DNA of 64,000 bases, taken from Bdellovibrionales bacterium (GTDB taxonomy: Bacteria; Bdellovibrionota; Bdellovibrionia; Bdellovibrionales; UBA1609). The notes beneath the pieces were generated by a model. The model did no database searches. It saw only the letters and a list, made by a program, of their open reading frames with translations, and was not told the origin of the DNA. A program made the translations under genes and the position numbers. The stretch lies in assembly GCA_965203785.1 (NCBI GenBank), contig OZ241911.1, positions 736,540-800,539 on the forward strand. Direction: 5' to 3'. Shown in pieces: positions 25,894-44,487 of this stretch; position 1 is the stretch's first letter; the number at the start of each line of letters is the position of its first letter.

Positions 25894-26610
25894 TCAGTCG
25901 CCTCTATTATAGAGGGCATCATTACTATTATGAATAGCTTTGTCAATAGTTGCTTTACTACAAATGAAAGTACTTGTAGCCCCTATTGCTGCTACTATAA
26001 AACCATTGATAAACAAAGAATTAAAGCTCATTCTTTTGCCAAATAGTGCTAATAATGGAATACCCATAAGAGAACCAGTAAGACTTCCAGTTATTATTGT
26101 TGAATCTTTAAGATTAAGAAGATTTGGGTCTAAAACTACATCATCACGATATACCCTTAAGGCTGTGTCTGCATCTATAAAGCCTATAAGACATCCCAAA
26201 CTTGCTGAAGCAATATTTGCCATTGCAATCGCTGGAAGTACCACTTTTGTGACTTTAAAAGAATTGTTTTCATTATTTAGATATTCAAGAGCCATATTAT
26301 TTATTGCTGGCATGTCTTCATTACTGCATTTTGCGACAGATTTTTTATATTGTGTCAATAGATTATTTTGATCTTCTTGATCTTGTGAGCCTGGTTGACT
26401 TTCAAAATCTGCCATGCAGACTGTTCCATCTTCTTTTAAATAAAGTGCATGGGATAGTGGTAAAATCTGATCTTGCATGTTTTGATTTTTCATATTTTGA
26501 TCTTTCATATATTGATAAGACATTCCACTTGCAAAACTAAAATTTTGAAATAGCATTACAAAACTCACAGCTATTAATATTGGATACTTTATTTTTAAAA
26601 ATTTTTTCAT
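25894..26610 (-). CDS. Secreted/membrane hypothetical protein, family 'A' (paralog of 43813..44487)
   Basis: 238 aa. It shares the N-terminus 'MKK.L...FQNFSFA..SY.YMKDQNM...LPLSHALYLKEDGTVC' with the paralog. The C-terminus is Gly-rich and hydrophobic ('GSLTGSLMGIPLLALFG'). Confidence 0.55.
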   Translation of the reverse strand: MKKFLKIKYPILIAVSFVMLFQNFSFASGMSYQYMKDQNMKNQNMQDQILPLSHALYLKEDGTVCMADFESQPGSQDQEDQNNLLTQYKKSVAKCSNEDMPAINNMALEYLNNENNSFKVTKVVLPAIAMANIASASLGCLIGFIDADTALRVYRDDVVLDPNLLNLKDSTIITGSLTGSLMGIPLLALFGKRMSFNSLFINGFIVAAIGATSTFICSKATIDKAIHNSNDALYNRGD

Positions 26611-27361: not shown

Positions 27362-28108
27362 TTAATCAATAGTAGAAAAATCTTTTGGTTTAAAATTAGC
27401 TTTGTTCGTAATACAAGCACTGTCACCTGTAGCCTTTATCACAAATAAACCTTTTTTTGTTGCATATAAATCAGCATTTTGATAAAGCTTTAAATAGGCT
27501 ATAGCTCCATAAATTTTTCGATCTTTATATTCTGGAAAAAACACAGTAAATTGCTTTAATGTTTCTAAAAAACGATCAACTGCATGAGCCCCTAAAGTAG
27601 ATTTTACCTCTGTAGCTACTAACTCGTGACCATTTCTGGCAATAATGTCAACCTCGCAACGCTTGCCTTTAATAGAATATGTTGCTTGATAATTAGGAAA
27701 TATACCTGTAACCTCGATACCTCTTTCTTGCAAAATCCTTAACAAACAACCTGATACTAGACTTTCTACTAACTCACCCCACTTGTTGCTAAATAAGTGC
27801 CTTAATTTTTTATCCTCTTTTGCCAATTCTTTTATCATACGATCAGTCTCTTGCATTCGACGATCGGTTTCTTTTTGGATTGCTCGTATTTCGAGTATGT
27901 CTTGATCATGTTTTTTTCGTGCTAAAGCGTTTTCCTGCTCATGTTTTTTTCGTGCTAAAGCGTTTTCCTGCTCATATTTTTTATGTGCAAGAGCAGTTTC
28001 TTGCTGATACTTTTTATGTGCAAGAGCAGTTTCTTTTAAAATAGAATAAATTTCATCAAAAGAAGGGGTTGTTTGTGGCATATTCTTAATACTCCTTATA
28101 AATAACAA
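27362..28108 (-). CDS. PD-(D/E)XK nuclease-fold protein with N-terminal coiled coil (DUF3782-like), family 'B'
   Basis: 248 aa with the nuclease-like core 'CEVDIIARNGHELVATEVKS'. It is a paralog of 44777..45418, sharing the C-terminus 'KKGLFVIKATG...ITNKANFKPKDFST'. Confidence 0.6.
   Translation of the reverse strand: MLFIRSIKNMPQTTPSFDEIYSILKETALAHKKYQQETALAHKKYEQENALARKKHEQENALARKKHDQDILEIRAIQKETDRRMQETDRMIKELAKEDKKLRHLFSNKWGELVESLVSGCLLRILQERGIEVTGIFPNYQATYSIKGKRCEVDIIARNGHELVATEVKSTLGAHAVDRFLETLKQFTVFFPEYKDRKIYGAIAYLKLYQNADLYATKKGLFVIKATGDSACITNKANFKPKDFSTID
27907..28038. repeat. 4 x 33-bp in-frame tandem repeat inside the family-B gene
   Basis: Units at 27907, 27940, 27973 and 28006 fall into two subtypes (2+2). 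They encode 'ETALAHKKYQQ/ETALAHKKYEQ/ENALARKKHEQ/ENALARKKHDQ'. Confidence 0.9.
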
Positions 28109-28280: not shown

Positions 28281-29420
28281 TTACAAAAAATTAGACATTT
28301 TTTTTAAAAAAGATTGGACAGGTAAAATTTGGATATTGTTTAAAGTATAACTTTTGTTTCCTGTATAGAGTAAAAAAGCTTTTGTTTGAGGATAGTCATT
28401 CATAAAAGTTAAAAGACTTTTTTGATCTTCTGTTCTAATCCGATTAGATGATTTAACTTCAAAAGCTTTTAAACCTCTTTCTCCATACAGTATAAAATCT
28501 ACTTCTTTTTTATGATCTTGTGTATGCCAGTAAAAAAAGTCATAATTCCAATTTTTATAACTATTTTGTGCTTTCATTTCTTGAAAGATTAAAGTTTCTA
28601 AAGCTACTCCAGCTCTTGCCTGAAAGGAATCCAACGGTCCAGCAGGTCTCAAAGTTTGAAATACACCTACATCAAAAAAATAAAACTTCATACTTTGGAT
28701 CAGTTTTCTTTTACTTTTTTTTGTCCAGGGCTTTAATTCATAAGAAAGCAAAGTATCTCTTAGAATAGCAAAATAATCCGACACCACTTTACGATGAACT
28801 GAACATTCTCTGGCAACATTATTGATATTGAGCAAAGAGCCTTGAGAAAAGCTGGCAGATTCTAAAAAGCGAGCAAAGGCAGGAAGATTTCTGGTTAAAC
28901 TTTCCTGTTGTACTTCTTCTTTTAAATAAGTATGAACATAACTGCTTAGAAATTTTTTTGGATTCGAAGCTTGGCAAGCCATAGGCAAGTGACCATATTT
29001 TAAAGATTTAGTTAAAGAAAAATCTTTACCTAATTCTTCTACTGTGAGAGGGTAGAAATACTCTGTTAAAGCTCGACCAGCGAGTAAATTAACTTGTTTT
29101 GATTTGAGCTTTCGTGCACTGGAACCAGTTAGAACAAATTTTATTTTTCTTTTTTCAATTAGACGGTGTACTTCATTTAAAAGTGATGGGATTTTTTGAA
29201 TTTCATCAATCACTACCCATTGTTTAAAAGAGTGAGGGATATAATTCGATAGACGGCTGGGATCAGCTATAAACTGGGTGTAAATTTGAGAATCTAATAG
29301 ATCAAAAAACAAAGCTTTTTTTTGATATTTATGTTCTACAAAACAAGATTTTCCCACACCTCTGGGACCTAATAAAAAATAGCTTTGTGTAGAAGATGGC
29401 TTTAGTGTGCGAGGATACAT
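28281..29420 (-). CDS. AAA ATPase with C-terminal DUF4143 (PD-(D/E)XK-like) domain
   Basis: 379 aa with Walker A 'GPRGVGKS', Walker B 'WVVIDEIQ' and C-terminal 'EVDFILYGERGLKAFEVKSS'. Confidence 0.75.
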   Translation of the reverse strand: MYPRTLKPSSTQSYFLLGPRGVGKSCFVEHKYQKKALFFDLLDSQIYTQFIADPSRLSNYIPHSFKQWVVIDEIQKIPSLLNEVHRLIEKRKIKFVLTGSSARKLKSKQVNLLAGRALTEYFYPLTVEELGKDFSLTKSLKYGHLPMACQASNPKKFLSSYVHTYLKEEVQQESLTRNLPAFARFLESASFSQGSLLNINNVARECSVHRKVVSDYFAILRDTLLSYELKPWTKKSKRKLIQSMKFYFFDVGVFQTLRPAGPLDSFQARAGVALETLIFQEMKAQNSYKNWNYDFFYWHTQDHKKEVDFILYGERGLKAFEVKSSNRIRTEDQKSLLTFMNDYPQTKAFLLYTGNKSYTLNNIQILPVQSFLKKMSNFL

Positions 29421-29603: not shown

Positions 29604-31604
29604 TTAAGAGGTATTTTTGCAAAAAAGGTTTTTTAATTGAGAAAATCTAGAAGGTTTGTATTTTTCATACTCTTCTTGTTTAATGTAGAGTCCCATAAAT
29701 TTTATCTTTTTTTGAGCTTGGTTTATATCAGTGCACCACTGATACAGTCTTTCTATTTTTTTAATATCATCTAAGTCTTCTCTTCCTTTAGTTTCTACAA
29801 TATAAATTTCTTTTTCAGATGTTTTTATTAAAAAATCAGGATAGTAATCTTTTATCTCTCCATTAGTGGTTTGGTAGTCAATTTTAAAATGAACAGAAAA
29901 ATAATTTTTAGCATAAGATATAATGTCATCACAATTTTTAAGAAAGCTTGCAAATTCTAATTCAAAATGACTGTCACCTACTATTTTATTAAATGCACTT
30001 TTTTTTGGGACAACAAAGCTTTGTTCTTTAATAACAAATGGGCGGGATTTACTAATTTTAATATAATCTCTAATTTCTACATCTCCTTTATCAACAACAG
30101 TCAGGTTATTTATTTCTTTCTTAAAGTTTTCAATAATTGTTTTTGTGACTTCTAATTCAGAAAGATTACGGAGAATATTCAAATTATCTAATTTAATTTT
30201 TTTTGTAAAAAGATAATTTATTATAAATTCTTTTACTTTTCCATATAAGATATCATGACTTCCAAATAACCGAAGTTCTTTTCTTATAGTTTCTGCAAAA
30301 TACCCAATAACACTTGAATAAGAAGGAATAAAATTACTATCAAATAAAGTTTTATGTGTTATTTCTCCAGATGTAATATCTCGAAATACAATTTCTTTTT
30401 TTTCTTCTTCACTAAATTGTTTTATTTCTATTTTTTTATGAGAGAATTGACTAGGATTTAATTCCGATAATTTTTTGTACTCTCTGCATATTCTTGGAGA
30501 TAAAATAGGGATTTCAATATCTAATTTTTGAATATCTTTTTTTATATTTTTCTCATCTATCTCTATAAGCAAAGGAGCATTTGGTTCTGTGCCTTCACCC
30601 ATTCTTTTGGTTTCTAATTCTACTCCTTCATGCTGTATAGATTCTACAAAATCCATAAAAGCAGGAGTGCCAACAACACTAACATATTCTGTAATATCTT
30701 CTCGTCCCCAATACATTCTTCTTAATCCTCTTCCTAAAGTTTGTTCTGGTAAAATATTACTTTGTGCAGTATAAGCTCGAAGACCTACAATGGTTGTAAC
30801 ATTTTTTACATCCCACCCTTCCTTTAGCATTAAAACAGATACAATAGCTTTATAAGGGCTTTGTTCTTTACTGGTATAAATACGTTGAATATTTGTAAGA
30901 AAAATGTTTCCAGTTTTTTTAACTAAACCAATGTTATCTTGTAAATGTAAGTTTAACTGAAAGTCATTTTTCCAGTTTTGCCCTTCAAAACCATTTTCTG
31001 GTAAAATAGGATCGTTAAAAAATATTTTAAGCCCTTCAAAGTCAGATCGAATACGATCTAAAACAATAATATTAGGTGTGATAATTAAAAAGTTTCTTGC
31101 CAGAGTGGAATGAGCTTCATAAAGTTTATGAAAAAAACTCCAAGCAACAAGTAAGCTTAGTACTTTTGTTTTACCTGTTCCTGTAGCCATCTTAATTACC
31201 ATTCTTAACCATTCTTCAGAAAATTGGCTTGAAGAAACAACACCAGAACTATCGTATCGAATGAGATCATATTTATTTTTAGCTTTAGCTACTTCGTAAA
31301 GAAAAATTACTGTTTCAATTGCTTCTCTTTGAGCAAAGTAATATTGAAAGTTAATTATACCTTCTTCTGTTTTTATAGGATGTTTTGTTTGAAATCACCA
31401 TTTAAGTAAGGTTTTGCTGGTGACACTTGCTCCTTCATATTGGCAATTTCTCCACTTTTTTATTTTCTGACGAAGTTTATGTACTAAAGGTGGTAGGAGT
31501 TTCCCATAGCCCCTTTGTCTTAAATCTTCATCTGCTGGAAACCAGCGAATGTCAGGATTCAGTATTTCATAAGGAGATTTTGGAAAATTTTTATGTAACG
31601 CCAT
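29604..31604 (-). pseudogene. Type III restriction Res-subunit-like DEAD/DEAH helicase, degraded
   Basis: ORFs 31395..31604 and 29604..31202 are in one frame, and the stretch 31203..31394 is open. They are interrupted only by TGA at 31395-31397, within '...SKTLLKW*FQTKH...FQYYFAQREAIETVIFLYEV...MATGTGKTKV'. Walker A is present, but no DExH box is visible before 'KAIVSVLMLKEGWDVKNV...QTLGRGLRR'. Confidence 0.75.
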
Positions 31605-32080
31605 TAGCTTTTAGTCTTTGCTGTAAATTCTATTTTTAATTCTTTAACAAATTCATAAATATTAATACACAGTATATTTTCTTTTTCACAAACATCAGGA
31701 ATTTTAATTTTTTTAGGTGCTTTTTGTTCTGCAGTAACCACTATAGCATTGTCACACTTAGCATGAGCTATTACCCAAGGGTCAGCCATAGACCTACCTT
31801 TTTGTTGATTAACCAATTGTGGATATGTTTTCATAATTTTTCTTAAATAAATTTGAACAGATTCATCAGGTTCTTTAAAAAGATCTGAAGTGTTAGTGAT
31901 CCATTTCAAAAGATCATCATCAATTTTTTTAATCTCATCTTTAACTTGCTTTGTGGCAAAAATTATACCTTTTTTACCTAAATTTTTAAGTAATTCCCAA
32001 TATCCTTTTGTAAATTGGGGAGAGTAGTATTTTGTCCAAGGTTCTATAAAAACATTGGTATCCAGGCAGTATTTTATCAT
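31604..32080 (-). CDS. DUF4411 PIN-like nuclease
   Basis: 158 aa. 'YCLDTNVFIEPW', 'ADPWVIAHAK' and 'AIVVTAEQ' are typical of DUF4411. It overlaps the upstream gene by 4 nt, and its stop overlaps the Res ATG by 1 nt. Confidence 0.75.
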   Translation of the reverse strand: MIKYCLDTNVFIEPWTKYYSPQFTKGYWELLKNLGKKGIIFATKQVKDEIKKIDDDLLKWITNTSDLFKEPDESVQIYLRKIMKTYPQLVNQQKGRSMADPWVIAHAKCDNAIVVTAEQKAPKKIKIPDVCEKENILCINIYEFVKELKIEFTAKTKS

Positions 32081-33297
32081 ATTGCACCTGTTGTTTTAAT
32101 AAGTTGATCTTTTATAGCTTTTTCCAAACTGTTAAGTTTCATGTCTAAGAGATTTGAAGCTTCTCTTCCAGTTAAGGTTCCTTCTTTATACGAGAAAAAT
32201 ACAATTTTTGTAAAACTTTCCCCATTGGCACGAATTTTTAAAAGGCTGGCATGAGGTCCACCTTTGTTTGTTTTCATTTTCTTCTCTAATTCATTTCTAT
32301 AGTGAGCAGATTCTTTGATATATTCTTTTTTAAGAGTTTCAAAAATACGAGGCTTTATAAGAGATAGGCTTTTTAATCTAATGAGCAAAGCCAGGCTACT
32401 CACTTTTAATTTTTTACAATTTAAATTTATAAATTCTTTTAATTTTTTATCTGTAAAATTACTTAATTTTGGAAAAGTTTTTATTTTTTTTTGTGGCATT
32501 AGTATTTCACCTGCTACTTGATTGCAAAAATATTCTGTATTTGATTTTTGAGCATTATTTTTTGGTAAAAAATGGTTAGGTACACCAGAAACATCTAACC
32601 ACAAGTGAGCTAGTTCGTGTAAAAGTGTAAATAATTTTGCACTATCAGAATCTTTTGAGTTAACAAAGATAAAAGGAGCATAAGGATCTGAAATAACAAA
32701 ACCCCTTGCTTCTTCAACTGGTATGGGGTTATGAGAATTTAAATTACTGGTGCGAGAAATAAAAATACCTTTTTTTTCACATTGATCGACCCAGTGGTTA
32801 AAAAGCACTCCTGTATTATTAATATCAGCTAACAATTTACAGTAGGTTTTTTCATTTTCCCAAATGGTATTTATAATATTTTGTGCGGTTTTTCTGACAG
32901 AAGATTTAATATTCATTGAGCCAATAAATGAAAGTTTATTATGTCCCTGTTCTTGTAAATATTGACTAAGCCAGGCTTGGCGTTCTTGTGTATGTCTCAT
33001 AAAGAATACTAATGGGGGACTATACTTAGGTTCTTTACCTCCCACAGTACGAAAATCTTTGAGCAAAGGAAAATCTCTTGGAGGGTGAGGAAGATAAAAA
33101 GCTGCCAGTGGTCTTCTATACACTTTTGACATTTTTTCAGCTTGTGCGAAGCTTGGTTTACTGATTCCTTGTTCCCAATCTTTTAATATATCTTCTGAAA
33201 TTCCTATTTTTTTAGAAGCTTCAGTAATAGAGTAGTGAGCTTTTTCTCTGGTCCATTTAATAACAGAAGGAGTAATAAGTGCTTTTTGTGTTTTCAT
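32077..33297 (-). CDS. XRE-type HTH fused to ImmA/IrrE (COG2856) zinc metallopeptidase
   Basis: 406 aa with the N-terminal HTH region 'ITEASKKIGISEDILKDWEQGISKPSFAQAEKMSKVY' and the HEXXH motif 'LLHELAHLWL'. Confidence 0.75.
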   Translation of the reverse strand: MKTQKALITPSVIKWTREKAHYSITEASKKIGISEDILKDWEQGISKPSFAQAEKMSKVYRRPLAAFYLPHPPRDFPLLKDFRTVGGKEPKYSPPLVFFMRHTQERQAWLSQYLQEQGHNKLSFIGSMNIKSSVRKTAQNIINTIWENEKTYCKLLADINNTGVLFNHWVDQCEKKGIFISRTSNLNSHNPIPVEEARGFVISDPYAPFIFVNSKDSDSAKLFTLLHELAHLWLDVSGVPNHFLPKNNAQKSNTEYFCNQVAGEILMPQKKIKTFPKLSNFTDKKLKEFINLNCKKLKVSSLALLIRLKSLSLIKPRIFETLKKEYIKESAHYRNELEKKMKTNKGGPHASLLKIRANGESFTKIVFFSYKEGTLTGREASNLLDMKLNSLEKAIKDQLIKTTGAI

Positions 33298-33479
33298 ATT
33301 CTTATTTCGATTACTTTCATTGTATCATTTCCAAAAATATCTACAATCTTAATAGCAATTTTTCTTCGACCTTTTTTTTAAATATTCGTGAAGAATATTT
33401 AATAACATCTCTTTTTTCCGCTTCCGTCAAATTCATTTTCATAATCTTTTTTCTCTAAAATAAAAAATTATTTCATCCA

Positions 33480-34643
33480 TTAAAAAGGAAGATCATCATA
33501 TTTTTGTTTTTTATTAGTTTTTTGTTTTTTAGCAATTAGTGTTTGGCTATCTATAATTTCAAAATGACTTTCTCCATTAATTTTTTGTATGGAATATCTA
33601 TTTTGGGTATGTTGAGATAAAATTTTGTCATTAAGTAACTCTGCATAATATCGACATTTGTTATTTTGTAATTGCTTTAAATGTTCTTCACTAATCCGAT
33701 CATATTTTGAACTAAAAGATAATAATACTGTAAGCTGGTTATTGTTTTCTGGATCTTTAATTGCAGTTACAATTTCTTCAATTTCTTGATCATTAAATTT
33801 AAAGTGTATTATATTCATCAATACTTGTCTTGCCCAATTAAAATCACTACCCTTAGCTTTAAGAAATTGATTTAAAAAATGCTTTTTAACAGACGAGTAT
33901 TGAGAAAACTCTTTTGTAATTAATCTAATTATATCACTAGTATTTGATTCAAGTTTTTTTACATCTAATGACATAGCTTGTATTTCACTTATAAACCCTT
34001 TTGGATCATAATTACCCAACTTTATGGGAATAATAGGAATATTTCTGGCTAATGCAAAACCAATTTCTTGATTCACCCACAAGCTTTTACAAGAATTTTC
34101 AGTAATGAGACAGAACATTATTTCCATTGAATTTAAAGCTTTTTTAATTTCCTGTTGCCATTGTTTTGCTGGTTCAATATCCTTATGAGCTACAAAACAG
34201 GAAAGATTATATCTTTTAAGATGGTCTTTTAATTTCTTTGCAATATCATAATTTTTTACAGAATGACTGATAAAAACTCTCAAACAATTTTTATCCCAAA
34301 AATCTGGAATTTTAGTATTCATAATTTTATTTTCTTTATAGATATTAAGATCAGCTTTGTATTCTAAAAATTCTTTTTTAGCTTCTTCAGGAAACAAATA
34401 TTGATACATGTCATACATTATTGTATTATCTAAGTTTTTAATAAGATTTAATATATTTTCATAAGAAAAATGTATATGATACGAATTACCAAAATCATCA
34501 TCTGTATAAAGTAAATCTTCAATTGAATCTTTGTCTTTTATATATTCTTCAATAAAAAAGAAGCCATTAGTTTTACCCATTTCTATAATTTTTTCTGTAA
34601 TTTTTGGGATAAATTCAAATCTTTGCTTCTTCGTTAAATTCAT
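33480..34643 (-). CDS. TIR-domain protein with unassigned N- and C-terminal regions
   Basis: 387 aa. Residues ~121-225 ('RVFISHSVKNYDIAKKLKDHL...CFVAHKDIEP...SLWVNQEIGFA') look like a TIR/DUF1863 fold with a candidate catalytic Glu193. An AAGGAG RBS precedes the ATG. The protein ends 'KYDDLPF'. Confidence 0.7.
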   Translation of the reverse strand: MNLTKKQRFEFIPKITEKIIEMGKTNGFFFIEEYIKDKDSIEDLLYTDDDFGNSYHIHFSYENILNLIKNLDNTIMYDMYQYLFPEEAKKEFLEYKADLNIYKENKIMNTKIPDFWDKNCLRVFISHSVKNYDIAKKLKDHLKRYNLSCFVAHKDIEPAKQWQQEIKKALNSMEIMFCLITENSCKSLWVNQEIGFALARNIPIIPIKLGNYDPKGFISEIQAMSLDVKKLESNTSDIIRLITKEFSQYSSVKKHFLNQFLKAKGSDFNWARQVLMNIIHFKFNDQEIEEIVTAIKDPENNNQLTVLLSFSSKYDRISEEHLKQLQNNKCRYYAELLNDKILSQHTQNRYSIQKINGESHFEIIDSQTLIAKKQKTNKKQKYDDLPF

Positions 34644-34680
34644 TTTTTTTCTCCTTACAAAATACTGCGTGTATTACTTT

Positions 34681-35553
34681 CTAAAAACTCATCTTCCAAT
34701 TATTAATTAGTTTATCTTCTTCATTATTGATTACTTCCTCTATATCTCCAGAATAACTTAAAACAGTCAATAATTTTCCATAAGAACCAAGACTCTGAAC
34801 TTCCTCCTTAACCTGGAGCAATTTATTTCCACTTAACCAGTTTCTAACATCAATTTCGTCTTCTTCATGTTCTATTTGAGAAAAGTATTTTTGATTTTTA
34901 TTGATTTTTGCTGTTAGTGAATTGGTTGGTACTGGGGATTTTTTGGTCGGCCAAACTAATTCTGGTAGAGATTTCATAGATTGAGACAGAAAACAAAAAT
35001 CTACTTTCATTCCCTTACTTACTATAACAGCGACAGCATCTTCAGATAAAGAAGTGTATCTAATAGCAGAAGAGATAAGAGAAGTTTTACAAGATTCTGC
35101 AATTTTTTTTATAGCGGAAAGTCCTGAAATATTTTTTCTAATTATAGGTTGAATTAAATTACTCGGCATTAACAAACCAGAGGCAAAATAATCTGCTTCC
35201 ATTTCATAAGAATCACTAGACACAAATCCAGAAGAAGATTGATGAGTACCATCTCCTTCATCAGGTAAAATATGATCCAAATGCCCTTCAAGAAAATAAT
35301 GACCTAATTCATGAGCAATAGAAAATCTTTGAAAACCTTCACTTTTAATATAAGTAGAATACATAATACCAAAAGAATTTCCATGTCGGAGCAATATACC
35401 TGATACACCTAAAGGGCAGACTTTTGGTTCAATCAGAATATTATGTTTATCGGCTACAGCTAATAAATCAATAGGTAAAGAATTATCTCCAGATTTTTTT
35501 GCAATATTTTCACCTTTTTGTGTTGCTATTTTTAGTTTAAAATTTTGATTCAT
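34681..35553 (-). CDS. ImmA/IrrE-family zinc metallopeptidase (CapP-like)
   Basis: 290 aa with HEXXH motif 'IAHELGHYFLEGH'. It overlaps the upstream HTH gene by 4 nt and is divergent from the CBASS operon. Confidence 0.75.
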   Translation of the reverse strand: MNQNFKLKIATQKGENIAKKSGDNSLPIDLLAVADKHNILIEPKVCPLGVSGILLRHGNSFGIMYSTYIKSEGFQRFSIAHELGHYFLEGHLDHILPDEGDGTHQSSSGFVSSDSYEMEADYFASGLLMPSNLIQPIIRKNISGLSAIKKIAESCKTSLISSAIRYTSLSEDAVAVIVSKGMKVDFCFLSQSMKSLPELVWPTKKSPVPTNSLTAKINKNQKYFSQIEHEEDEIDVRNWLSGNKLLQVKEEVQSLGSYGKLLTVLSYSGDIEEVINNEEDKLINNWKMSF

Positions 35554-35915
35554 GAATCTCGTTTTTTTGTGGCTTGTGAAGATTTATTCCGCTTTACCAA
35601 CATTTTGATAAAATCTTTAGCTAGTTTTAGATCATTTCCAGTTAGTTTGCTAAAATTTCTAAACAGAGGATCACCAAATGCAGACATTTCAGGATTATCA
35701 ACACGACCTAGTAGATAATCAGTAGTTACATTCAAAGCTATTGCCAATCGTCGCAAATTATCAAAAGAGGGTTTTCTTGAGCCAATTTCAAAGTGGGCAA
35801 TAGAACTTAGAGGCAAATTTGCATTTTTAGCTAACTCGCTCTGGTTCCATTGACGCACTACTCTGGCTATTTTAAGCCGTTTTTGGAACTTTTCAGAAGG
35901 TTTACTGTTACTCAT
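35550..35915 (-). CDS. XRE-family HTH transcriptional regulator (CapH-like)
   Basis: 121 aa. 'WNQSELAKNANLPLSSIAHFEIGSRKPSFDNLRRLAIALNVTTDYLLG' is a classic HTH_3 domain. Confidence 0.8.
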   Translation of the reverse strand: MSNSKPSEKFQKRLKIARVVRQWNQSELAKNANLPLSSIAHFEIGSRKPSFDNLRRLAIALNVTTDYLLGRVDNPEMSAFGDPLFRNFSKLTGNDLKLAKDFIKMLVKRNKSSQATKKRDS

Positions 35916-35938
35916 AATAAAAAATCGCCATAAAAAAA

Positions 35939-35976
35939 ATGTCTAACTTGACATATTATATTTTTGTTCCTAAATT
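35939..35976 (+). promoter_or_regulatory. Candidate CBASS promoter with overlapping inverted-repeat operator
   Basis: Inverted repeat ATGTC-N6-GACAT lies at 35939-35954. The plus-strand promoter is -35 TTGACA (35948-35953), a 17-nt spacer, then -10 TAAATT (35971-35976). A perfect TATAAT on the minus strand (35960-35955) faces the HTH gene. Confidence 0.45.
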
Positions 35977-36087
35977 ACCTCTAAAATGTAAATAATAAAA
36001 TGACGAAATCGCCAAGTCAATAGGAGTTATGAAAAATGTATGTATTATTACGAAGTGGTAATTTTTTAATAGTAGGAAGGAAGTATT

Positions 36088-37185
36088 ATGGATCAAAATA
36101 AGCCTTATAGAGTTCTCTCATTAGATGGAGGAGGTATGAGGGGTCTATATACAGCATCTGTCCTGCAATCTCTGATGAATTGCTTTTCCCAGTGTTCAAA
36201 TAGAGAAAACAAAGATATTGGAAAAGGTTTTGATCTAATAGTTGGAACGAGTACAGGAGGAATCTTAGCTTGTGGATTAGTCGCAGGTATTCCTATTAAT
36301 AAAATGATAGAGCTTTATTCTAAAAAAGGAAACAAGATATTCACTAATCCTTTTCCTTCTAAAGGAATTTTCAAAACATTACGTTGGATATTTAAGAATA
36401 GCTGTAAAACTGCAAACTCCAATAATATTCTAATCCAAGAATTACAAAATATATTCCACAATAAAACAATGGAACAAATCTATAATGAGAGGCAAGTTGG
36501 ATTATGTATTACTGCTGTTAATTTAATGGATCATTCCCCTAGGGTTTTCAAAACTCCCCATGATCCATTAAAAAATGTGGACAATAATAGAAAGTTAACG
36601 GATATATGTTTAGCTACTTCTGCTTTTCCTATATTACTTCCTATTGCACATATTCCTGATCCAGGAGGAAATAATATTTACGAAGATTTTGTAGATGGTG
36701 GTTTATGGGCAAACAGTCCTATTTTAGTGGCTTTAGTGGAAGCTATAACCTGCTCTAAAAAAGAGCAACCAATAGAAATTATATCTATTAGTTCTTGCTC
36801 TCCTTCAAAAGGTCAAACAGTTTTGGAAAGAGATATAAATAAAGGTTTGAAAGGATGGCGAGCTGGCATTCAACCTTTGGAGCTTTCAATGGATGCTCAA
36901 TCAAAATCTAATCATTTTGTTAGCGACTTTTTATGTACTCAATTAAATAAATTAGGGAAATATATTACAGTTGATCGTTTAAAGCAAAAATCTCCTTCTG
37001 CAGAGCAAGTAGATTTTTTTTCTATGGATCGAGCAGATGAACACACTTGCTCAATGTTAATAAAATGGGGAAAAAAAGATGCAGAAGAAATTTATGGGAC
37101 AATAATCAGAGAAAATAAATATAATATATTAAAAGCAATTTTTACTAATTTACCAAATCTAAAAGGAGGAAATAATCATGGCTAA
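36088..37185 (+). CDS. Patatin-like phospholipase, CBASS effector (CapV/CapE-like)
   Basis: 365 aa with oxyanion 'DGGGMRG', nucleophile 'GTSTGG' (Ser55) and the Asp dyad in 'FVDGGLWANSP'. An AGGAAGG RBS precedes it, and it overlaps the next gene by 8 nt. Confidence 0.85.
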   Translation: MDQNKPYRVLSLDGGGMRGLYTASVLQSLMNCFSQCSNRENKDIGKGFDLIVGTSTGGILACGLVAGIPINKMIELYSKKGNKIFTNPFPSKGIFKTLRWIFKNSCKTANSNNILIQELQNIFHNKTMEQIYNERQVGLCITAVNLMDHSPRVFKTPHDPLKNVDNNRKLTDICLATSAFPILLPIAHIPDPGGNNIYEDFVDGGLWANSPILVALVEAITCSKKEQPIEIISISSCSPSKGQTVLERDINKGLKGWRAGIQPLELSMDAQSKSNHFVSDFLCTQLNKLGKYITVDRLKQKSPSAEQVDFFSMDRADEHTCSMLIKWGKKDAEEIYGTIIRENKYNILKAIFTNLPNLKGGNNHG

Positions 37186-38185
37186 TATACAAAAACAATT
37201 AGAGGTATTCCATAAAAATATCAAAGTTGAATCCAGCGAATTAAGAGAAAAAAGAGATATTATTTTAAATAAAATAAGAAAATCTCTTTCTGAAGATAAA
37301 AAACCTATCCCAGAAGTTCTAAATCAAGGAAGTTATATATATGGAGTGGGAATCAAACCTGTTTCAGAAGAGGACTATGATATTGATGTAGGACTTGATT
37401 TTAATATTAAATCTTCAGACTACAATGCGGAAGCAGTTAGAAAATGGGTTTATGATGCAATCAAAAAACATACAGATAAAGTGCAAAGTAAAGGACCTTG
37501 TATTCGGGTTATATATCAAATAGGTTATCATGTTGATCTTGTATGTTATGCCAGATATAAAGATAATGATCTAACTGAGAATTTTCAATTAGCCCATAAA
37601 AACGGTTTATGGATGCCATCTGATCCTAAAAAAATAAAATATCATATTCAAAAAGCCAGAGAAAAGTTTAAAGACACAAAAGACAGTAGTGGTTCAGATC
37701 AATTACAAAGAATAGTCCGATATTTTAAAAGGTGGAATGACTTAATGATTGTAGCTGAATCTAATGACAAACCTATTGGTTTGGCAATTTTGCTTTATTG
37801 CATTGAAACATTGCCATTCTCTACTTGTGATTCTAAAGGTGATTTAGATGACTTACAAGCTCTTATAATTATTTCTGAAAAAGCGAAACACAGTACCAGA
37901 ATTTGTGTCAAAAAACCAGATACTGAAGAAGATGTCTTTAGTAAAATAAGCGAAAAAGGAATGACAGAGCTTATCATTAAATTTCACAAATTATATGAAG
38001 CTTTATTAAATGCAAGAAATTCTGATTGTTTGGAGGACGCTTGTAAAATAATGAGAGAGCAATTTGGAGATGATTTTCCATTGGAAAAAAATGATGAAGA
38101 TAAAAATAAAACAAAAGCTTCTCTTTTATCAGCAACAGTTTCAAGTTACTCAACTTCCTTTAAACCTTATGGACAAACAAAATGA
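37178..38185 (+). CDS. CD-NTase (cGAS/DncV-like nucleotidyltransferase, SMODS)
   Basis: 335 aa with the Pol-beta NTase signature 'QGSYIYGVGIKPVSEEDYDIDVG' (G51-S52, D68, D70). 'YHVDLV' supplies a third acidic residue (D120). It overlaps the next gene by 4 nt. Confidence 0.8.
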   Translation: MANIQKQLEVFHKNIKVESSELREKRDIILNKIRKSLSEDKKPIPEVLNQGSYIYGVGIKPVSEEDYDIDVGLDFNIKSSDYNAEAVRKWVYDAIKKHTDKVQSKGPCIRVIYQIGYHVDLVCYARYKDNDLTENFQLAHKNGLWMPSDPKKIKYHIQKAREKFKDTKDSSGSDQLQRIVRYFKRWNDLMIVAESNDKPIGLAILLYCIETLPFSTCDSKGDLDDLQALIIISEKAKHSTRICVKKPDTEEDVFSKISEKGMTELIIKFHKLYEALLNARNSDCLEDACKIMREQFGDDFPLEKNDEDKNKTKASLLSATVSSYSTSFKPYGQTK

Positions 38186-38865
38186 CTTTACCTTGGTGGA
38201 TAATAAAAAAAGAACTTTATAAGCAAGTTATCAAAGATGTTAGTCAATACCATGGGCTACGTTATTGTATAGAGTACAACAAATTTATAATTTGTGGTGC
38301 TTGGCCAGTATATGGTGGACCTATAAGAAAAGTCCACCTTGAAGATTTTTTGATAAAGATTGTTTTTCCTAATAATTACCCAGATGACCTTCCAAAAATA
38401 TATGAAACAGGTAATAGGATAAAAACAAAAAATGCAGATACTCACTTTTATATAGATGGTTCTGCTTGTTTATTTTTTCCCACGGAGAGATATTTACATT
38501 TTCCAAAAGGCAAGGTTTTTCAATTAAAGAATTTTTTAGACGGACCAGTTAACAGCTTTTTTTTCTCACAATTACATTATATTTGTCACAAAAAATGGCC
38601 ATTTGGTCAGCGTTCACATGATATAGCAGGTTTATTAGAATTTTATGGGGAAAATTTAAGTATACCATGTAATCAAAAAAGTGTTTTAGAGGCTTTATCT
38701 TATTTATTAAAACCACAAATAAAAGGACATTGGCCTTGTCCTTGTGGGAGTGACAAAATAAGAAAATGTCATGTTAAAAACTTCAGATTGTTAAACGAAA
38801 AAATTCCTAAAAAAAATGTCATGCGAGATATAAAGTTTTTAGAAAAAAAATCTATTACGATATAG
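38182..38865 (+). CDS. E2 (UBC-fold) ubiquitin-conjugating-like protein, E2-only Cap2-type, with C-terminal SEC-C-like motif
   Basis: 227 aa. 'LIKIVFPNNYPDDLPKIYETG' followed by 'THFYIDGSACLFFP' resembles the UBC core (His88, candidate catalytic Cys96). The C-terminus carries 'HWPCPCGSDKIRKCH'. No E1 or JAB domain is present. Confidence 0.65.
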   Translation: MTLPWWIIKKELYKQVIKDVSQYHGLRYCIEYNKFIICGAWPVYGGPIRKVHLEDFLIKIVFPNNYPDDLPKIYETGNRIKTKNADTHFYIDGSACLFFPTERYLHFPKGKVFQLKNFLDGPVNSFFFSQLHYICHKKWPFGQRSHDIAGLLEFYGENLSIPCNQKSVLEALSYLLKPQIKGHWPCPCGSDKIRKCHVKNFRLLNEKIPKKNVMRDIKFLEKKSITI

Positions 38866-38969: not shown

Positions 38970-39974
38970 ATGACAGTAAAAAATAAACAACAATTAGACA
39001 ATATTTCTATAAAAAAACTAGCTAGTCCACATGATAGATTTTTTAAAGGTGCTTATTCTAAACTTGAATTTGTGGTTGAGATTTTTAAACTTATTTTCTC
39101 TAAAAAGGAATTTAATGCTTGTAATTGGAAATTGCTAAAAACAGAAAAAGATAGTTTCAAAGATAAAAGAGCAGATCTTGTCTTTTCTGTCCCACTTAAG
39201 AACACTCCAAAAACTAACTTAAGAATTTTTATTCTGTTAGAGCATAAATCCAGTTATAATCCTCAACTCTTTACCCAACTACTTAACTACCAGACTTATA
39301 TCCATGAGCAAACTCTTAAAGAATCTGGTCGTCCTCAACCTGTTATCCCTGTTTTGTTCTACCATGGGAAGACAGTTTGGAAGTGGAAACTCTCTTTCCA
39401 AGAGGCTTTTTTTGGGGAGTTTTTTGCTAAAATTCCTGTTGATTTTCGAAAAAATATGCTAAACTACAGATTGAAATTATTGGATGTTCAAGATCCGAAA
39501 GTAAACAAGGTTTTAAGAGATAAGAGTTTTAAAAGCCGTGGGATTTTGAATTTATTTAGGAATATTTGGTCTCTAAAAATGAATGAGGCTGAGTTGTTGA
39601 AGATTTTACTTTTGTTTGGTAGGTTTTTAAATAAAGATGATGATTTAGTATTAAATTTGTTGGATTATTTTAAGGCTTTTGGGATGAGCCGTGTATTATG
39701 GCAAAAAGTAGAAAGATCGGCTGTTCAAAAGGGGATATTTCAAAGAGGAGGCTACATGGATATAAAAGAACATTTTAAAGAAGAAGGTCGATTGGAAGGC
39801 ATACGAAAAGGCAGACAAGAAGGTAGACAAGAAGGCAGACAAGAAGGTCGTCAAGAGTGCAGGCAAGAGGTTATTTTAAATATGCTAAAAGAAAAAGCAG
39901 ATATTACTTTTATTTCTCAAGTAACAGGGTTATCTAAGAAAGAAATAAAGAAGCTAAAAAATAGCTCAAAGTAG
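38970..39974 (+). CDS. Rpn-family recombination-promoting nuclease / putative transposase (YhgA-like PD-(D/E)XK)
   Basis: 334 aa. 'PHDRFFKG', 'RADLVFSVPL' and 'ILLEHKSS' are typical of the Transposase_31/Rpn N-terminal nuclease domain. The C-terminal tail has a GRQE repeat. Confidence 0.8.
   Translation: MTVKNKQQLDNISIKKLASPHDRFFKGAYSKLEFVVEIFKLIFSKKEFNACNWKLLKTEKDSFKDKRADLVFSVPLKNTPKTNLRIFILLEHKSSYNPQLFTQLLNYQTYIHEQTLKESGRPQPVIPVLFYHGKTVWKWKLSFQEAFFGEFFAKIPVDFRKNMLNYRLKLLDVQDPKVNKVLRDKSFKSRGILNLFRNIWSLKMNEAELLKILLLFGRFLNKDDDLVLNLLDYFKAFGMSRVLWQKVERSAVQKGIFQRGGYMDIKEHFKEEGRLEGIRKGRQEGRQEGRQEGRQECRQEVILNMLKEKADITFISQVTGLSKKEIKKLKNSSK
39810..39869. repeat. 5 x 12-bp in-frame tandem repeat (GRQE)n in rpn
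   Basis: The units are ggcagacaagaa / ggtagacaagaa / ggcagacaagaa / ggtcgtcaagag / tgcaggcaagag. Confidence 0.9.
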
Positions 39975-41974: not shown

Positions 41975-43186
41975 TTAAATTTTCTGGCAAACAATAATAT
42001 ATTCTGTATGCATAGTGTTCACCTTTTTTCCAACAACATTTGTGGGGGAGTTTTGGGCAGGCATAGTTTTTGATGAAATCAATCGTTCATAAGTGAGAAC
42101 ATGTGTAAAACCATTTTTTTCAAATTGTTCTGCAATAAATTGATCAGTTGGCAAAGTAATATTTTTAACAGTTCTGTTGCCAACCACATAAATAGAAAAT
42201 CCTTTATTTGTAATACTTTGAGAAACCTCTTTAATAGATTTTTCTAAATCTATATAAAAAGAAGAAACCTCTAAAGCTCTTTTATAGTTAATGTTACTTA
42301 TTTTTTTAATAGGTGAAGATAAAACTCCTTTGTTATATAAATTTTTAGCTTTCTTTCCTCCCATTAGTTGAGAATCAATTTTTCTGGCACTTGGGAAACC
42401 AATCCACTCATTAGAAAGAGTGGAAAATTGTCCATAAGCTACCGTTGTTTTACTATCTCCATAAGGTGGACTAGTTAATACAGCATCATATTTGTTTTTT
42501 TGGCATATAAATTCCCTATTATAAAAATAAAACTTTTGTTTTTTAAGCAAAGATAGATACACTTCTGTATAATTAGTTAAAATTTTATCTAAATTTTTGA
42601 AATACAATTCAAATACATCTGGATTAAAAAGTTTTCTCTTTTCTTCTGTCATCCTATAAAGCTTAAATTCACTATTTCTGGTATAAGAAACAAATCGGAC
42701 TGTTTCAGAAAAAGCAAGCCAAAATAAAAGTTGGTATTTTTTGTTATCCACTTCTTCCAATATAGAGTGTCTGATAATTGATAAATCTTTAATTATTCTA
42801 TTAGAGAACCAAAAGTTAATGTTTGTTACAAAAGGGGGTAAAATGTTTTCTTCTTCATAATAAATAGCATATTCTATATTTTTTCTGTATTCAGAAAGTT
42901 TTTTTGTATTAAGTTTTGTATATTTTGCTTTGGCAATCAAAATAGCTAATGGGTTTATGTCGAAACCATGAAATTCTGAAAAACCAGAAGCAATCCCCGC
43001 CAATACAGAAGAACCTGTGCCACAATAAGGATCTAATAAGTAATTTTTATTGATTTTTAATTCTTTAAAAAGTTCAATACCAATTTGAGGTAACATGGTT
43101 GCCGGATATTTATGAAGATTAGGGAATCGAGTAGAATAACTTTCCCCTTTAAAATCATAACTATTATTTATTTGCATCTCATACAT
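41975..43186 (-). CDS. DNA methyltransferase (N6-adenine or N4-cytosine), apparently orphan
   Basis: 403 aa. The AdoMet motif I 'LLDPYCGTGSSVLAG' (aa ~50) and catalytic motif IV 'LTSPPYGDS' (aa ~238) are separated by ~185 aa. No adjacent endonuclease-sized ORF is present. Confidence 0.75.
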   Translation of the reverse strand: MYEMQINNSYDFKGESYSTRFPNLHKYPATMLPQIGIELFKELKINKNYLLDPYCGTGSSVLAGIASGFSEFHGFDINPLAILIAKAKYTKLNTKKLSEYRKNIEYAIYYEEENILPPFVTNINFWFSNRIIKDLSIIRHSILEEVDNKKYQLLFWLAFSETVRFVSYTRNSEFKLYRMTEEKRKLFNPDVFELYFKNLDKILTNYTEVYLSLLKKQKFYFYNREFICQKNKYDAVLTSPPYGDSKTTVAYGQFSTLSNEWIGFPSARKIDSQLMGGKKAKNLYNKGVLSSPIKKISNINYKRALEVSSFYIDLEKSIKEVSQSITNKGFSIYVVGNRTVKNITLPTDQFIAEQFEKNGFTHVLTYERLISSKTMPAQNSPTNVVGKKVNTMHTEYIIVCQKI

Positions 43187-43812: not shown

Positions 43813-44487
43813 CTATTGATTTAAAATATTCTGTTCCGCTTTTTGTTCTATTGCTACTTCCTTTAATGCATAAGTGAATATATGACAAAAAACAGCAGCT
43901 GAAGCTCCTAATAATGGTATCGAAAGACCAGCAATTCCTTTAAGTGTCATAGAGCTTTTTAATCCACCATTTATGAGGAATATAGGAATCCCTATAAGTG
44001 AACCAAACAGAGTACCCAATATTGCTGAATTTTTCTCATCGATAAAGTGACCTTTTAAAAATAGATGATAATCCTGTGGTTCAATAGATTTTAAGATACG
44101 TCTTGTTTCTATACCACCTATAATACACGCAAGACCTACTGAAGCAGCACCTGCTAATGGAAGTGATACTTTTTTTTTAACCAAAGAATTTTCTTTATTA
44201 TTTAAGTATTCACTGGCTATGTTATTTATTATTTGTGTATCTTCATTGTTACATTTTGTAACAGAGTTTTCATATTGTGCTGATATATTGTTTTGATCTT
44301 TTAGGTTTTCAAAATCTGTTATACAAACTGTTCCATCTTCTTTTAAATACAACGCATGAGATAGTGGTAAATTATAATCTTCCATGTTTTGATCTTTCAT
44401 ATAGTGGTAAGATAGCCCAATTGCAAAACTAAAATTTTGAAACAATATTATAAAACTTGTAGCACTTAGTATTAAATATTTTTTCAT
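43813..44487 (-). CDS. Secreted/membrane hypothetical protein, family 'A' (paralog of 25894..26610)
   Basis: 224 aa. It shares the N-terminal ~70 aa and the Gly-rich hydrophobic C-terminus ('GTLFGSLIGIPIFLING') with the paralog. Confidence 0.55.
   Translation of the reverse strand: MKKYLILSATSFIILFQNFSFAIGLSYHYMKDQNMEDYNLPLSHALYLKEDGTVCITDFENLKDQNNISAQYENSVTKCNNEDTQIINNIASEYLNNKENSLVKKKVSLPLAGAASVGLACIIGGIETRRILKSIEPQDYHLFLKGHFIDEKNSAILGTLFGSLIGIPIFLINGGLKSSMTLKGIAGLSIPLLGASAAVFCHIFTYALKEVAIEQKAEQNILNQ

Follow-up and report, generated by a model that had tools for sequence, protein, structure and literature searches.

The window analysed here is a 64,000-nt stretch of DNA from a Bdellovibrionales bacterium (GCA_965203785.1, contig OZ241911.1, positions 736,540-800,539 of the forward strand). 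Within it, a gene for a 387-aa TIR-domain protein lies directly 3' of a capH-capP regulator pair, which is itself divergent from a cyclic oligonucleotide-based antiphage signalling system (CBASS). An earlier note, made from the letters alone, had proposed that the helix-turn-helix (HTH) gene, the peptidase gene and the TIR gene form a three-gene unit, either self-contained or wired as a second effector into the switch that controls the CBASS. On our reading, the three genes are a juxtaposition of two independent defence elements. The features that carry this finding are listed below in window coordinates.

35550..35915, minus strand: capH, XRE-type HTH repressor, 121 aa (Pfam HTH_3 2.8e-10; PADLOC capH 8e-23, 101 of 103 profile positions)
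34681..35553, minus strand: capP, M78/ImmA-IrrE zinc peptidase with HELGH, 290 aa (Pfam Peptidase_M78 3.1e-10; PADLOC capP 3e-59, full length)
34644..34680, minus strand: capP-TIR spacer, 37 nt, with AAGGAG and without a terminator
33480..34643, minus strand: TIR effector gene, 387 aa (Pfam TIR_2 4.5e-20, alignment, AlphaFold2 models, Foldseek)
34299-34643, minus strand: N-terminal region of the TIR protein, aa 1 to ~115, lineage-restricted and poorly modelled
33963-34283, minus strand: TIR domain, aa ~121-227, with the E193 codon at 34065-34067
33549-33962, minus strand: C-domain, aa ~228-365, family-specific, helical with a beta-hairpin
33483-33500, minus strand: tail YDDLPF-COOH, preceded by a K/Q-rich linker
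35916..36087: shared capH/CBASS promoter region with two conserved motifs (alignment of four syntenic loci)
36088..38865, plus strand: type II-short CBASS operon
36088-37185, plus strand: CBASS patatin effector (PADLOC phospholipase effector 1.3e-91; Pfam Patatin)
37178-38185, plus strand: CBASS CD-NTase (PADLOC cyclase 3.9e-82; Pfam DncV-like NTase)
38182-38865, plus strand: CBASS E2 (PADLOC E2 2.4e-49)

CapH/CapP and the divergent CBASS

By sequence and position, capH-capP is a DNA-damage-responsive regulator pair, of known type, for the divergent type II-short CBASS. The earlier note was right about the genes and their geometry. The HTH and HEXXH-peptidase pair is CapH/CapP on full-length PADLOC matches and Pfam, and the coordinates of the 121-aa and 290-aa open reading frames (ORFs) overlap by 4 nt. 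The operon divergent from capH is a CBASS, type II-short by its patatin, CD-NTase and E2 genes. The 387-aa TIR ORF begins 37 nt past the capP stop codon on the same strand, with AAGGAG 8 nt ahead of its ATG.

According to the preprint of Lau et al., the regulated operon is always opposite capH/capP, which lie upstream of that operon. In the window this is the position of the CBASS (36088-38865, plus strand) and not of the TIR gene, which is on the same strand as capP and 3' of it. As the operon opposite capH is the CBASS, the expected target of CapH/CapP is the CBASS rather than the TIR gene. The alignment of the syntenic loci further shows a palindrome, ATGTCAAGTTAGACAT, at 35939-35954 in the capH/CBASS intergenic region, and TTGGCGATTTCGTCA at 36001-36015 with a second GGCGATTT copy near capH, all conserved across four genomes. 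The ATGTCAAGTTAGACAT and TTGGCGATTTCGTCA/GGCGATTT motifs are candidate CapH operators, and no exact copy of the two was found elsewhere in the 64-kb window, the vicinity of the TIR gene included. The HTH repressor with its M78 peptidase, the overlapping genes, the divergent CBASS and the conserved shared-promoter motifs are all as in the described CapH/CapP-CBASS regulators (Lau et al. 2022; Calloji et al. 2026 preprint), and the sole difference in the window is the presence of extra defence genes 3' of capP on the same strand.

The TIR protein and its family

The TIR_2 match spans aa 123-227, the AlphaFold model is confident across aa 111-370, and Foldseek places the core on the TIR domains of AbTir, BtpA and SARM1 (probability 1.0, TM-target 0.6-0.77). 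E193, the Glu of SLWVNQEIG, is kept without exception in 34 homologs and almost without exception in 40 remoter ones, and it aligns with the Glu of 'SLWMPWELG' in the solved TIR chain 8btn_B. Judged from alignment and model, the domain looks catalytically competent. A Pfam/PADLOC scan of the flanks gave no match to a SAVED, STING, cyclic nucleotide monophosphate (cNMP)-binding or P-loop domain, and the PADLOC SAVED_TIR match is confined to the TIR core (aa 121-193); nor was a SIR2, SLOG or Macro protein found among the scanned neighbours in the window. A TIR fold with a candidate catalytic Glu, flanks without SAVED, STING or Walker annotation and the absence of a ThsA-type SIR2/Macro-SLOG partner had all been put forward in the earlier note, and each holds within these scans.

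Taken alone, the C-domain (predicted local distance difference test score (pLDDT) of the model 82) had no match among PDB structures (best E 0.57) or BFVD structures (best E 0.23), and its profile had none among PDB sequences. The N-terminal 115 aa had no Pfam match, and a homolog search with the isolated region came back empty.

A TIR_2-type domain with the SxW..(Q)E motif is shared with Thoeris ThsB and with the TIR effectors of CBASS and Pycsar, but the window protein is without a ThsA-type effector and without a SAVED, STING or cNMP-binding domain. This bears on the reading of the protein as a Thoeris-like synthase, whose nucleotide product would act on an effector that is unlinked or not recognised. 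The weak similarity to PADLOC ThsB (1.2e-9) and NCBIfam ThcB4 (1.2e-14) points that way, although both scores fall well short of the family cutoffs (ThcB4 54 bits against 220) and neither a SIR2, SLOG or Macro protein nor another conserved partner occurs in the window or in more than 80 loci. We regard such a synthase as very improbable.

Searching with the TIR protein gave 38 matches among 5.8 billion clusters, and a profile of the C-domain found 55 clusters (at 50% identity) among 1.84 billion representatives. TIR_2 was present in 34 of the 40 C-domain clusters that were scanned and another effector domain in none of them. The conserved portion of the family is the TIR domain together with a C-domain of ~135 aa. 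The N-termini (~110-140 aa) are of several unrelated types, for example AbiJ_NTD3 in homolog P0028, and the type seen in the window is common to only five of 33 aligned homologs (P0002, P0026, P0027, P0030 and P0032).

For the genomic setting we took a census of 80 loci from one-genome-per-species contigs, further loci from exact-protein look-ups and 19 loci on viral contigs (L numbers below for all of these), and searched all ORFs in them with the window proteins and with restriction-modification (R-M) proteins. Ten loci make up the census of the lineage; five of the ten look-ups (P0003, P0005, P0023, P0032 and P0017) had no genomic record. The direct neighbours are heterogeneous, with no Pfam family in more than six of 70: the commonest upstream is Methylase_S (6/70) and the commonest downstream HSDR_N (4/68). 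No effector partner, ThsA-like or otherwise, is conserved among these 70 upstream and 68 downstream neighbours. Solitary copies are found on a Megaira plasmid and on a Klebsiella IncFIA plasmid, and the 19 viral or prophage contigs carry further stand-alone copies. The setting is mobile or defence-island DNA, with R-M, toxin-antitoxin (TA) and CBASS surroundings and no obligate partner gene. We read the family as one of rare, phylogenetically scattered, single-polypeptide TIR effectors that move as a cassette. Our literature searches on TIR proteins with an SSB-like tail, on CapH/CapP with TIR and on TIR genes in R-M operons, incomplete in their coverage, turned up no account of the family.

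The Klebsiella copy, WP_086540592.1, is a 310-aa protein ending in ESDDIPF; its gene stands alone beside IS26 on the conjugative Klebsiella pneumoniae IncFIA plasmid NZ_CP118040.1 (L087/L089), on which an SSB gene of the plasmid's own, ArdA and further anti-restriction genes are found as well. At the nucleotide level (megablast) this homolog has no match in 5,426 complete E. coli genomes, which suggests that it is not among the E. coli TIR systems tested so far. It offers a convenient experimental model for the family.

Neighbourhood of the TIR gene

A capH/capP pair precedes a TIR homolog in two of the 80 genome loci (L004, which is the same place as L003, and L008), and additionally in L084 and the window. 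These four are one syntenic locus type in Bdellovibrionales metagenome-assembled genomes (MAGs), and in all of them the same CBASS follows beyond capH. The pair is missing from six of the ten lineage loci (L001, L005, L006, L007, L085 and L088) and likewise from the other 78 genome loci. Among full-length homologs the closest is P0002 (L001, 53% identity), which has an AbiEii gene upstream and no capH-capP. L068 has a single capP-like M78 gene ~1 kb downstream on the opposite strand and no adjacent capH/capP pair.

On this census the self-contained three-gene module does not survive: the arrangement belongs to a single syntenic lineage, and the CBASS is always there. Such a system would have in its favour that the genes adjoin one another, with little space between them, in the window, L004, L008 and L084. 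Yet it is not once seen without the CBASS on the other side, it is absent outside the one lineage, the PADLOC capH and capP models match over their full length, and the TIR gene does without capH-capP in the six lineage loci and the 78 others; a three-gene system of this kind can hardly be right. What stands of the earlier interpretation is CapH/CapP, the CBASS, the TIR fold with its Glu, the unannotated flanks and the terminator-free spacer; the three-gene unit does not. The TIR gene should accordingly not be catalogued within a CapHP-TIR system, and CapH/CapP are here ordinary CBASS regulators.

The spacer itself is as first described, free of hairpin and terminator. A terminator scan found no terminator-like site in or near it, and the spacer with its flanks folds at -4.8 kcal/mol (z 0.34), no better than shuffled sequences. 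The capP-TIR gap is 37 nt in the window and 19 nt in both L004 and L084; in L008 it is 136 nt, and the TIR gene there is without the N-terminal part. The junction of the window is homologous to the 19-nt junctions of L004 and L084 only up to the capP stop codon. This break in homology indicates that the junction was rebuilt by recombination, which brought in a different N-terminal type. Promoter-like matches in this DNA of 28-33% GC number 40 against 45 expected from shuffles, a count that is uninformative on a promoter for the TIR gene.

In the window genome, the TIR gene is probably transcribed, at least in part, by read-through from the capH-capP promoter, and DNA damage or CapP activated by single-stranded DNA (ssDNA) may raise the level of the TIR protein in this way. 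We see such wiring as a lineage-specific by-product of adjacency and not as a defining feature. A stronger form, the other half of the earlier proposal, makes the TIR protein a damage-switched second effector: capH, capP, the TIR gene and the genes behind it would be one transcript from the CapH-repressed promoter, and ssDNA-activated CapP would induce the divergent CBASS and the TIR effector together. The 37-nt spacer with a ribosome-binding site and no terminator, the 19-nt junctions of L004 and L084, and the run of genes from capH to res in L084, all in one direction with short gaps, are consistent with it. However, the described CapH/CapP systems control an operon on the opposite strand, the window has no operator-like motif near the TIR gene, capH-capP is missing beside most homologs, and the window junction loses its homology at the capP stop codon through recombination; promoter-like matches, no commoner than in shuffles, speak neither for nor against an internal promoter. 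A second effector under the same switch is a possibility of some weight that we hold tentatively, and it is compatible with two independent elements, as a regulatory add-on.

Restriction-modification loci

Behind the TIR gene, the window carries the following features.

33303..33377, minus strand: last ~25 codons of a type III mod gene, a 3'-end remnant (tblastn with Mod of L008 and L084)
32077..33297, minus strand: fused XRE-HTH and M78 peptidase, 406 aa, RmrA-like/spr1629-like antitoxin-repressor
31604..32080, minus strand: DUF4411 (PIN-like) protein, 158 aa, overlapping the RmrA-like gene (Pfam DUF4411 3.9e-43)
29604..31604, minus strand: type III res pseudogene (tblastn with L008 Res; broken frame)

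The 406-aa HTH-M78 protein matches Pfam HTH_3 and Peptidase_M78 and PADLOC RmrA (9e-20), with a match to NCBIfam antitox_spr1629 (7.7e-12) that is under the cutoff. The DUF4411 protein is its probable toxin partner.

Elsewhere in the lineage, a type III mod gene lies directly 3' of the TIR gene in L006, L007, L008, L084 and L085, with res further on, and mod or res is found downstream of the TIR gene in these five and L088. The order of the array is TIR-mod-[variable cassette]-res. TIR-mod is the conserved junction, since on its upstream side the TIR gene has differing neighbours (capP, a methyltransferase, a CNNM transporter or an unknown protein). The gap between mod and res seems to be a hotspot within the R-M operon where TA-like or defence cargo inserts. 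Its cassette is an RmrA-like HTH-M78 gene with DUF4411 in L008 and L084, RhuM in L006, SocA/Panacea with M78 and TPR in L085, and KilA-N with DUF488 in L088.

The window holds a decayed TIR-mod-res array, in which mod is deleted, res is broken and the TIR gene is intact. A mod remnant (33377..33303), detected by tblastn in the 183-nt gap that separates the TIR stop codon from the RmrA-like gene, matches Mod residues 709-733 and 732-757 (L008, L084) at 54-60% identity (E 2e-4). With the 906-aa Res of L008, residues 1-243 match at 31604..30870 and residues 476-904 at 30863..29616; the window res has an internal deletion of ~230 codons and a broken frame, its ORFs being split into 69 aa and 532 aa. 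L004 retains the first ~45 codons of mod instead, so that one locus keeps the start of mod and the other its end, and the deletions differ. L088 has an internally deleted mod and, in addition, a mod fragment upstream of the TIR gene. These pieces flank the TIR gene, with aa ~100-147 upstream (6803-6943) and aa 3-70 and 500-733 downstream (8365-9348), and suggest either a rearrangement or the insertion of a TIR cassette within mod. That the TIR gene of the window has outlived its R-M neighbours with all invariant residues argues for a protein that works on its own.

Across the census, type I hsd genes lie within 6 kb of the TIR gene in 21 of the 80 loci and type III genes in six. The end of hsdS is at most 30 nt from the TIR start, or overlaps it, in at least nine loci, often in the order hsdM-hsdS-TIR-hsdR, and one viral contig (L102) shows the same nesting. 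About two thirds of the loci are without an R-M gene within 6 kb.

RloC genes were first noticed beside type I or III R-M genes, and prrC sits in an hsdM-hsdS-prrC-hsdR arrangement (PMC3014915). The niche is the same, an abortive-infection-type effector placed as hsdM-hsdS-X-hsdR or linked to type III genes. However, PrrC and RloC combine an ABC-ATPase with an anticodon nuclease, whereas the TIR family is unrelated and has TIR-type Pfam matches only, which makes this an analogy and not a membership; unlike theirs, its R-M linkage is not obligatory, and the window copy outlived its R-M genes. By this analogy, the TIR protein could act as a guard that is kept latent through contact with a type I or III restriction enzyme and would fire when a phage anti-restriction protein disables the enzyme or when restriction products appear. 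The prrC-like position with (near-)overlapping hsdS and TIR genes in at least nine loci speaks for this, as does the TIR-mod junction, kept in five Bdellovibrionales loci despite differing upstream neighbours. We nevertheless consider it rather unlikely, given that in the window and L004 an intact TIR gene with every invariant residue has survived the loss of mod (and res), that the plasmid and viral copies are solitary, like the roughly two thirds of loci with no R-M gene nearby, and that R-M operons are general landing pads, as RhuM, SocA/Panacea, KilA-N and RmrA-like/DUF4411 between mod and res show. For the R-M-nested members a guard role is plausible, weakened by the solitary copies and by survival after R-M decay. 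These members add a TIR case to the PrrC/RloC theme of suicide effectors inside restriction loci.

The RmrA-like/DUF4411 pair raises a further alternative, in which the TIR protein would be a second toxin of a RosmerTA-like TA unit together with the RmrA-like (HTH-M78) and DUF4411 proteins. The three genes are adjacent in the window, in L004, in L001 (which has neither capH-capP nor CBASS) and in L048. This grouping dissolves on closer comparison: in L008 and L084 a gene for a 736-758-aa Mod separates the pair from the TIR gene, Mod remnants are found at that place in the window and L004, L006, L085 and L088 have other cassettes instead of the pair, and 77 of the 80 genome loci are without it. 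The pair in L048 is just another insert in a type I operon, and the TIR protein does not show the RosmerTA pattern of a toxin that always adjoins an RmrA-like gene. Such a trio is improbable. L048 is from a Sumerlaeales MAG, and the TIR homolog ahead of the pair there, itself inside a type I R-M operon, is a distant one; in L001, DUF4411 is split into two ORFs.

The C-terminal tail

The window protein ends in ...KKQKYDDLPF, and the C-terminus of family members is very often [DE][DE][ILMV]PF-COOH, after a low-complexity linker. Examples are ELDDDIPF, DFDDEIPF, FDDDIPF and VDDDLPF in genome loci, PFDDDDIPF and NVDDDLPF on viral contigs, MDDDIPF and DLDDEIPF among cluster representatives, many of which have the tail, and the ESDDIPF of the Klebsiella plasmid copy. 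Of the 83 TIR ORFs in genome loci, 24 have such an ending ([ILMV]PF), compared with none of the 2,333 other ORFs of 100 aa or more in these loci, and so do 13 of the 19 viral-contig copies (tailed members include L022, L033, L049, L078, L087:4848-5780 and L097-L103). It is missing in about half to two thirds of family members, and those nested in type I operons mostly lack it, ending right after the C-domain hairpin.

The C-terminal tip of the single-stranded DNA-binding protein SSB (...DFDDDIPF-COOH) likewise closes with a stretch of acidic residues and then [ILMV]-P-F, but the TIR protein is without the oligonucleotide/oligosaccharide-binding (OB) fold and is not an SSB. A beta-clamp-binding motif (QL[SD]LF) and a protease degron were also considered for the tail and set aside; we take the acidic-[IL]PF-COOH pattern to fit the SSB tip much better than either. 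A preprint on DRT10 (2026) describes FDDDIPF as closely like the C-terminal tip of E. coli SSB, on which SbcB and other host factors of DNA processing dock. On the Klebsiella plasmid NZ_CP118040.1, the SSB ends in ...PPMDDDAPF; the 64-kb window holds no SSB gene with which to compare the tail. In the literature searched, we found no TIR protein described with an SSB-tip-like tail.

The tail could thus be a functional mimic of the SSB tip that couples the TIR NADase to the SSB interactome, a reading suggested by the motif that we regard as doubtful. Three routes can be pictured. The tail might bait phage proteins that dock on host SSB (recombinases, exonucleases or replication factors) and, by way of the oligomers that these form, bring the TIR domains into clusters and so lead to NAD+ depletion; it might tether the TIR protein to host SSB partners at damaged or foreign DNA; or it might be autoinhibitory and, being SSB-like, be displaced by ssDNA. 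If true, this would be a new route of infection sensing for a bacterial immune effector, and it would fit the R-M adjacency of the family and, here, the ssDNA-sensing CapP next door.

Interpretation

In bacteria, stand-alone TIR proteins serve as abortive-infection effectors that deplete NAD+, and phage proteins set them off by way of the non-TIR regions. In a recent systematic study of TIR proteins, stand-alone TIRs were set aside as likely NAD+-depleting effectors. Single-protein TIR systems that protect E. coli are documented as well (TIR-V/-VI/-IX; Nat Commun 2024). The family shares with TIR-V/-VI/-IX and with SpbK of the B. subtilis ICEBs1 a single polypeptide, a TIR domain with the catalytic Glu, the lack of a dedicated partner and carriage on mobile elements or in defence islands, and the presumed outcome would also be the same, NAD+ depletion and abortive infection. 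In contrast to these proteins, it has a C-domain of its own, interchangeable N-termini and the SSB-tip-like tail, with no detectable sequence kinship to them beyond the TIR core.

We favour, with a probability of roughly 0.6, the reading that two independent elements stand side by side: CapH/CapP as regulators of the CBASS, and a stand-alone TIR effector with NADase activity that acts by abortive infection. An infection cue received through the N- and C-terminal regions would release self-association of the TIR domains, which the variable N-terminus, the C-domain and the tail would govern; the associated domains would then hydrolyse NAD+, and the infected cell would be arrested or die. CapH/CapP, the CBASS and the single-protein TIR effector are each of an already known kind.

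Several points weigh against this reading. The tight capP-TIR junction of 19-37 nt is kept in three genomes, so that there may be functional coupling to CapH/CapP within the lineage. The recurrent R-M linkage means that the protein may not be fully autonomous, and the presence of RmrA-like and DUF4411 genes 3' of the TIR gene both in L001 and in the distant Sumerlaeales locus L048 may exceed chance. The N-terminal region is modelled at a pLDDT of ~50 and has no relatives detectable in an isolated search, so that its sensor role is an assumption. Finally, NADase activity and phage defence are predictions for every member of the family.

What distinguishes the family is a C-domain found nowhere else, its modular N-termini and its recurrent lodging in type I and III R-M loci. 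The SSB-tip-like tail gives a handle on how a stand-alone TIR protein might read events of DNA replication and repair.

Other features of the island

Two genes for signal-peptide/membrane proteins, at 25894-26610 and 43813-44487 (both on the minus strand), are paralogs (48% identical, BLASTP E 2e-58) that bracket a block of ~17 kb holding all defence genes; the pair may mark the borders of the island or a duplication. Right after the CBASS E2 gene, at 38970-39974, lies an Rpn/YhgA-like (Transposase_31) gene with a fourfold GRQE repeat. In L005 a member of this family stands upstream of the TIR gene, and L003 has a PDDEXK_2/Rpn-type gene at its edge; the window gene is possibly involved in shuffling the island. 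A 403-aa ORF on the edge of the island, 41975-43186, has only weak methyltransferase-like matches (N6_N4_Mtase 1.4e-3) and adjoins no nuclease gene; it may encode an orphan methyltransferase or a degenerate one. The product of 27362-28108 is a protein with a weak Hjc/AHJR-like nuclease fold and with 'QETALAHKKY/EQENALARKKH' repeats in tandem, that of 28281-29420 is an AAA_14 plus DUF4143 ATPase, and similar genes flank L001 and L003.

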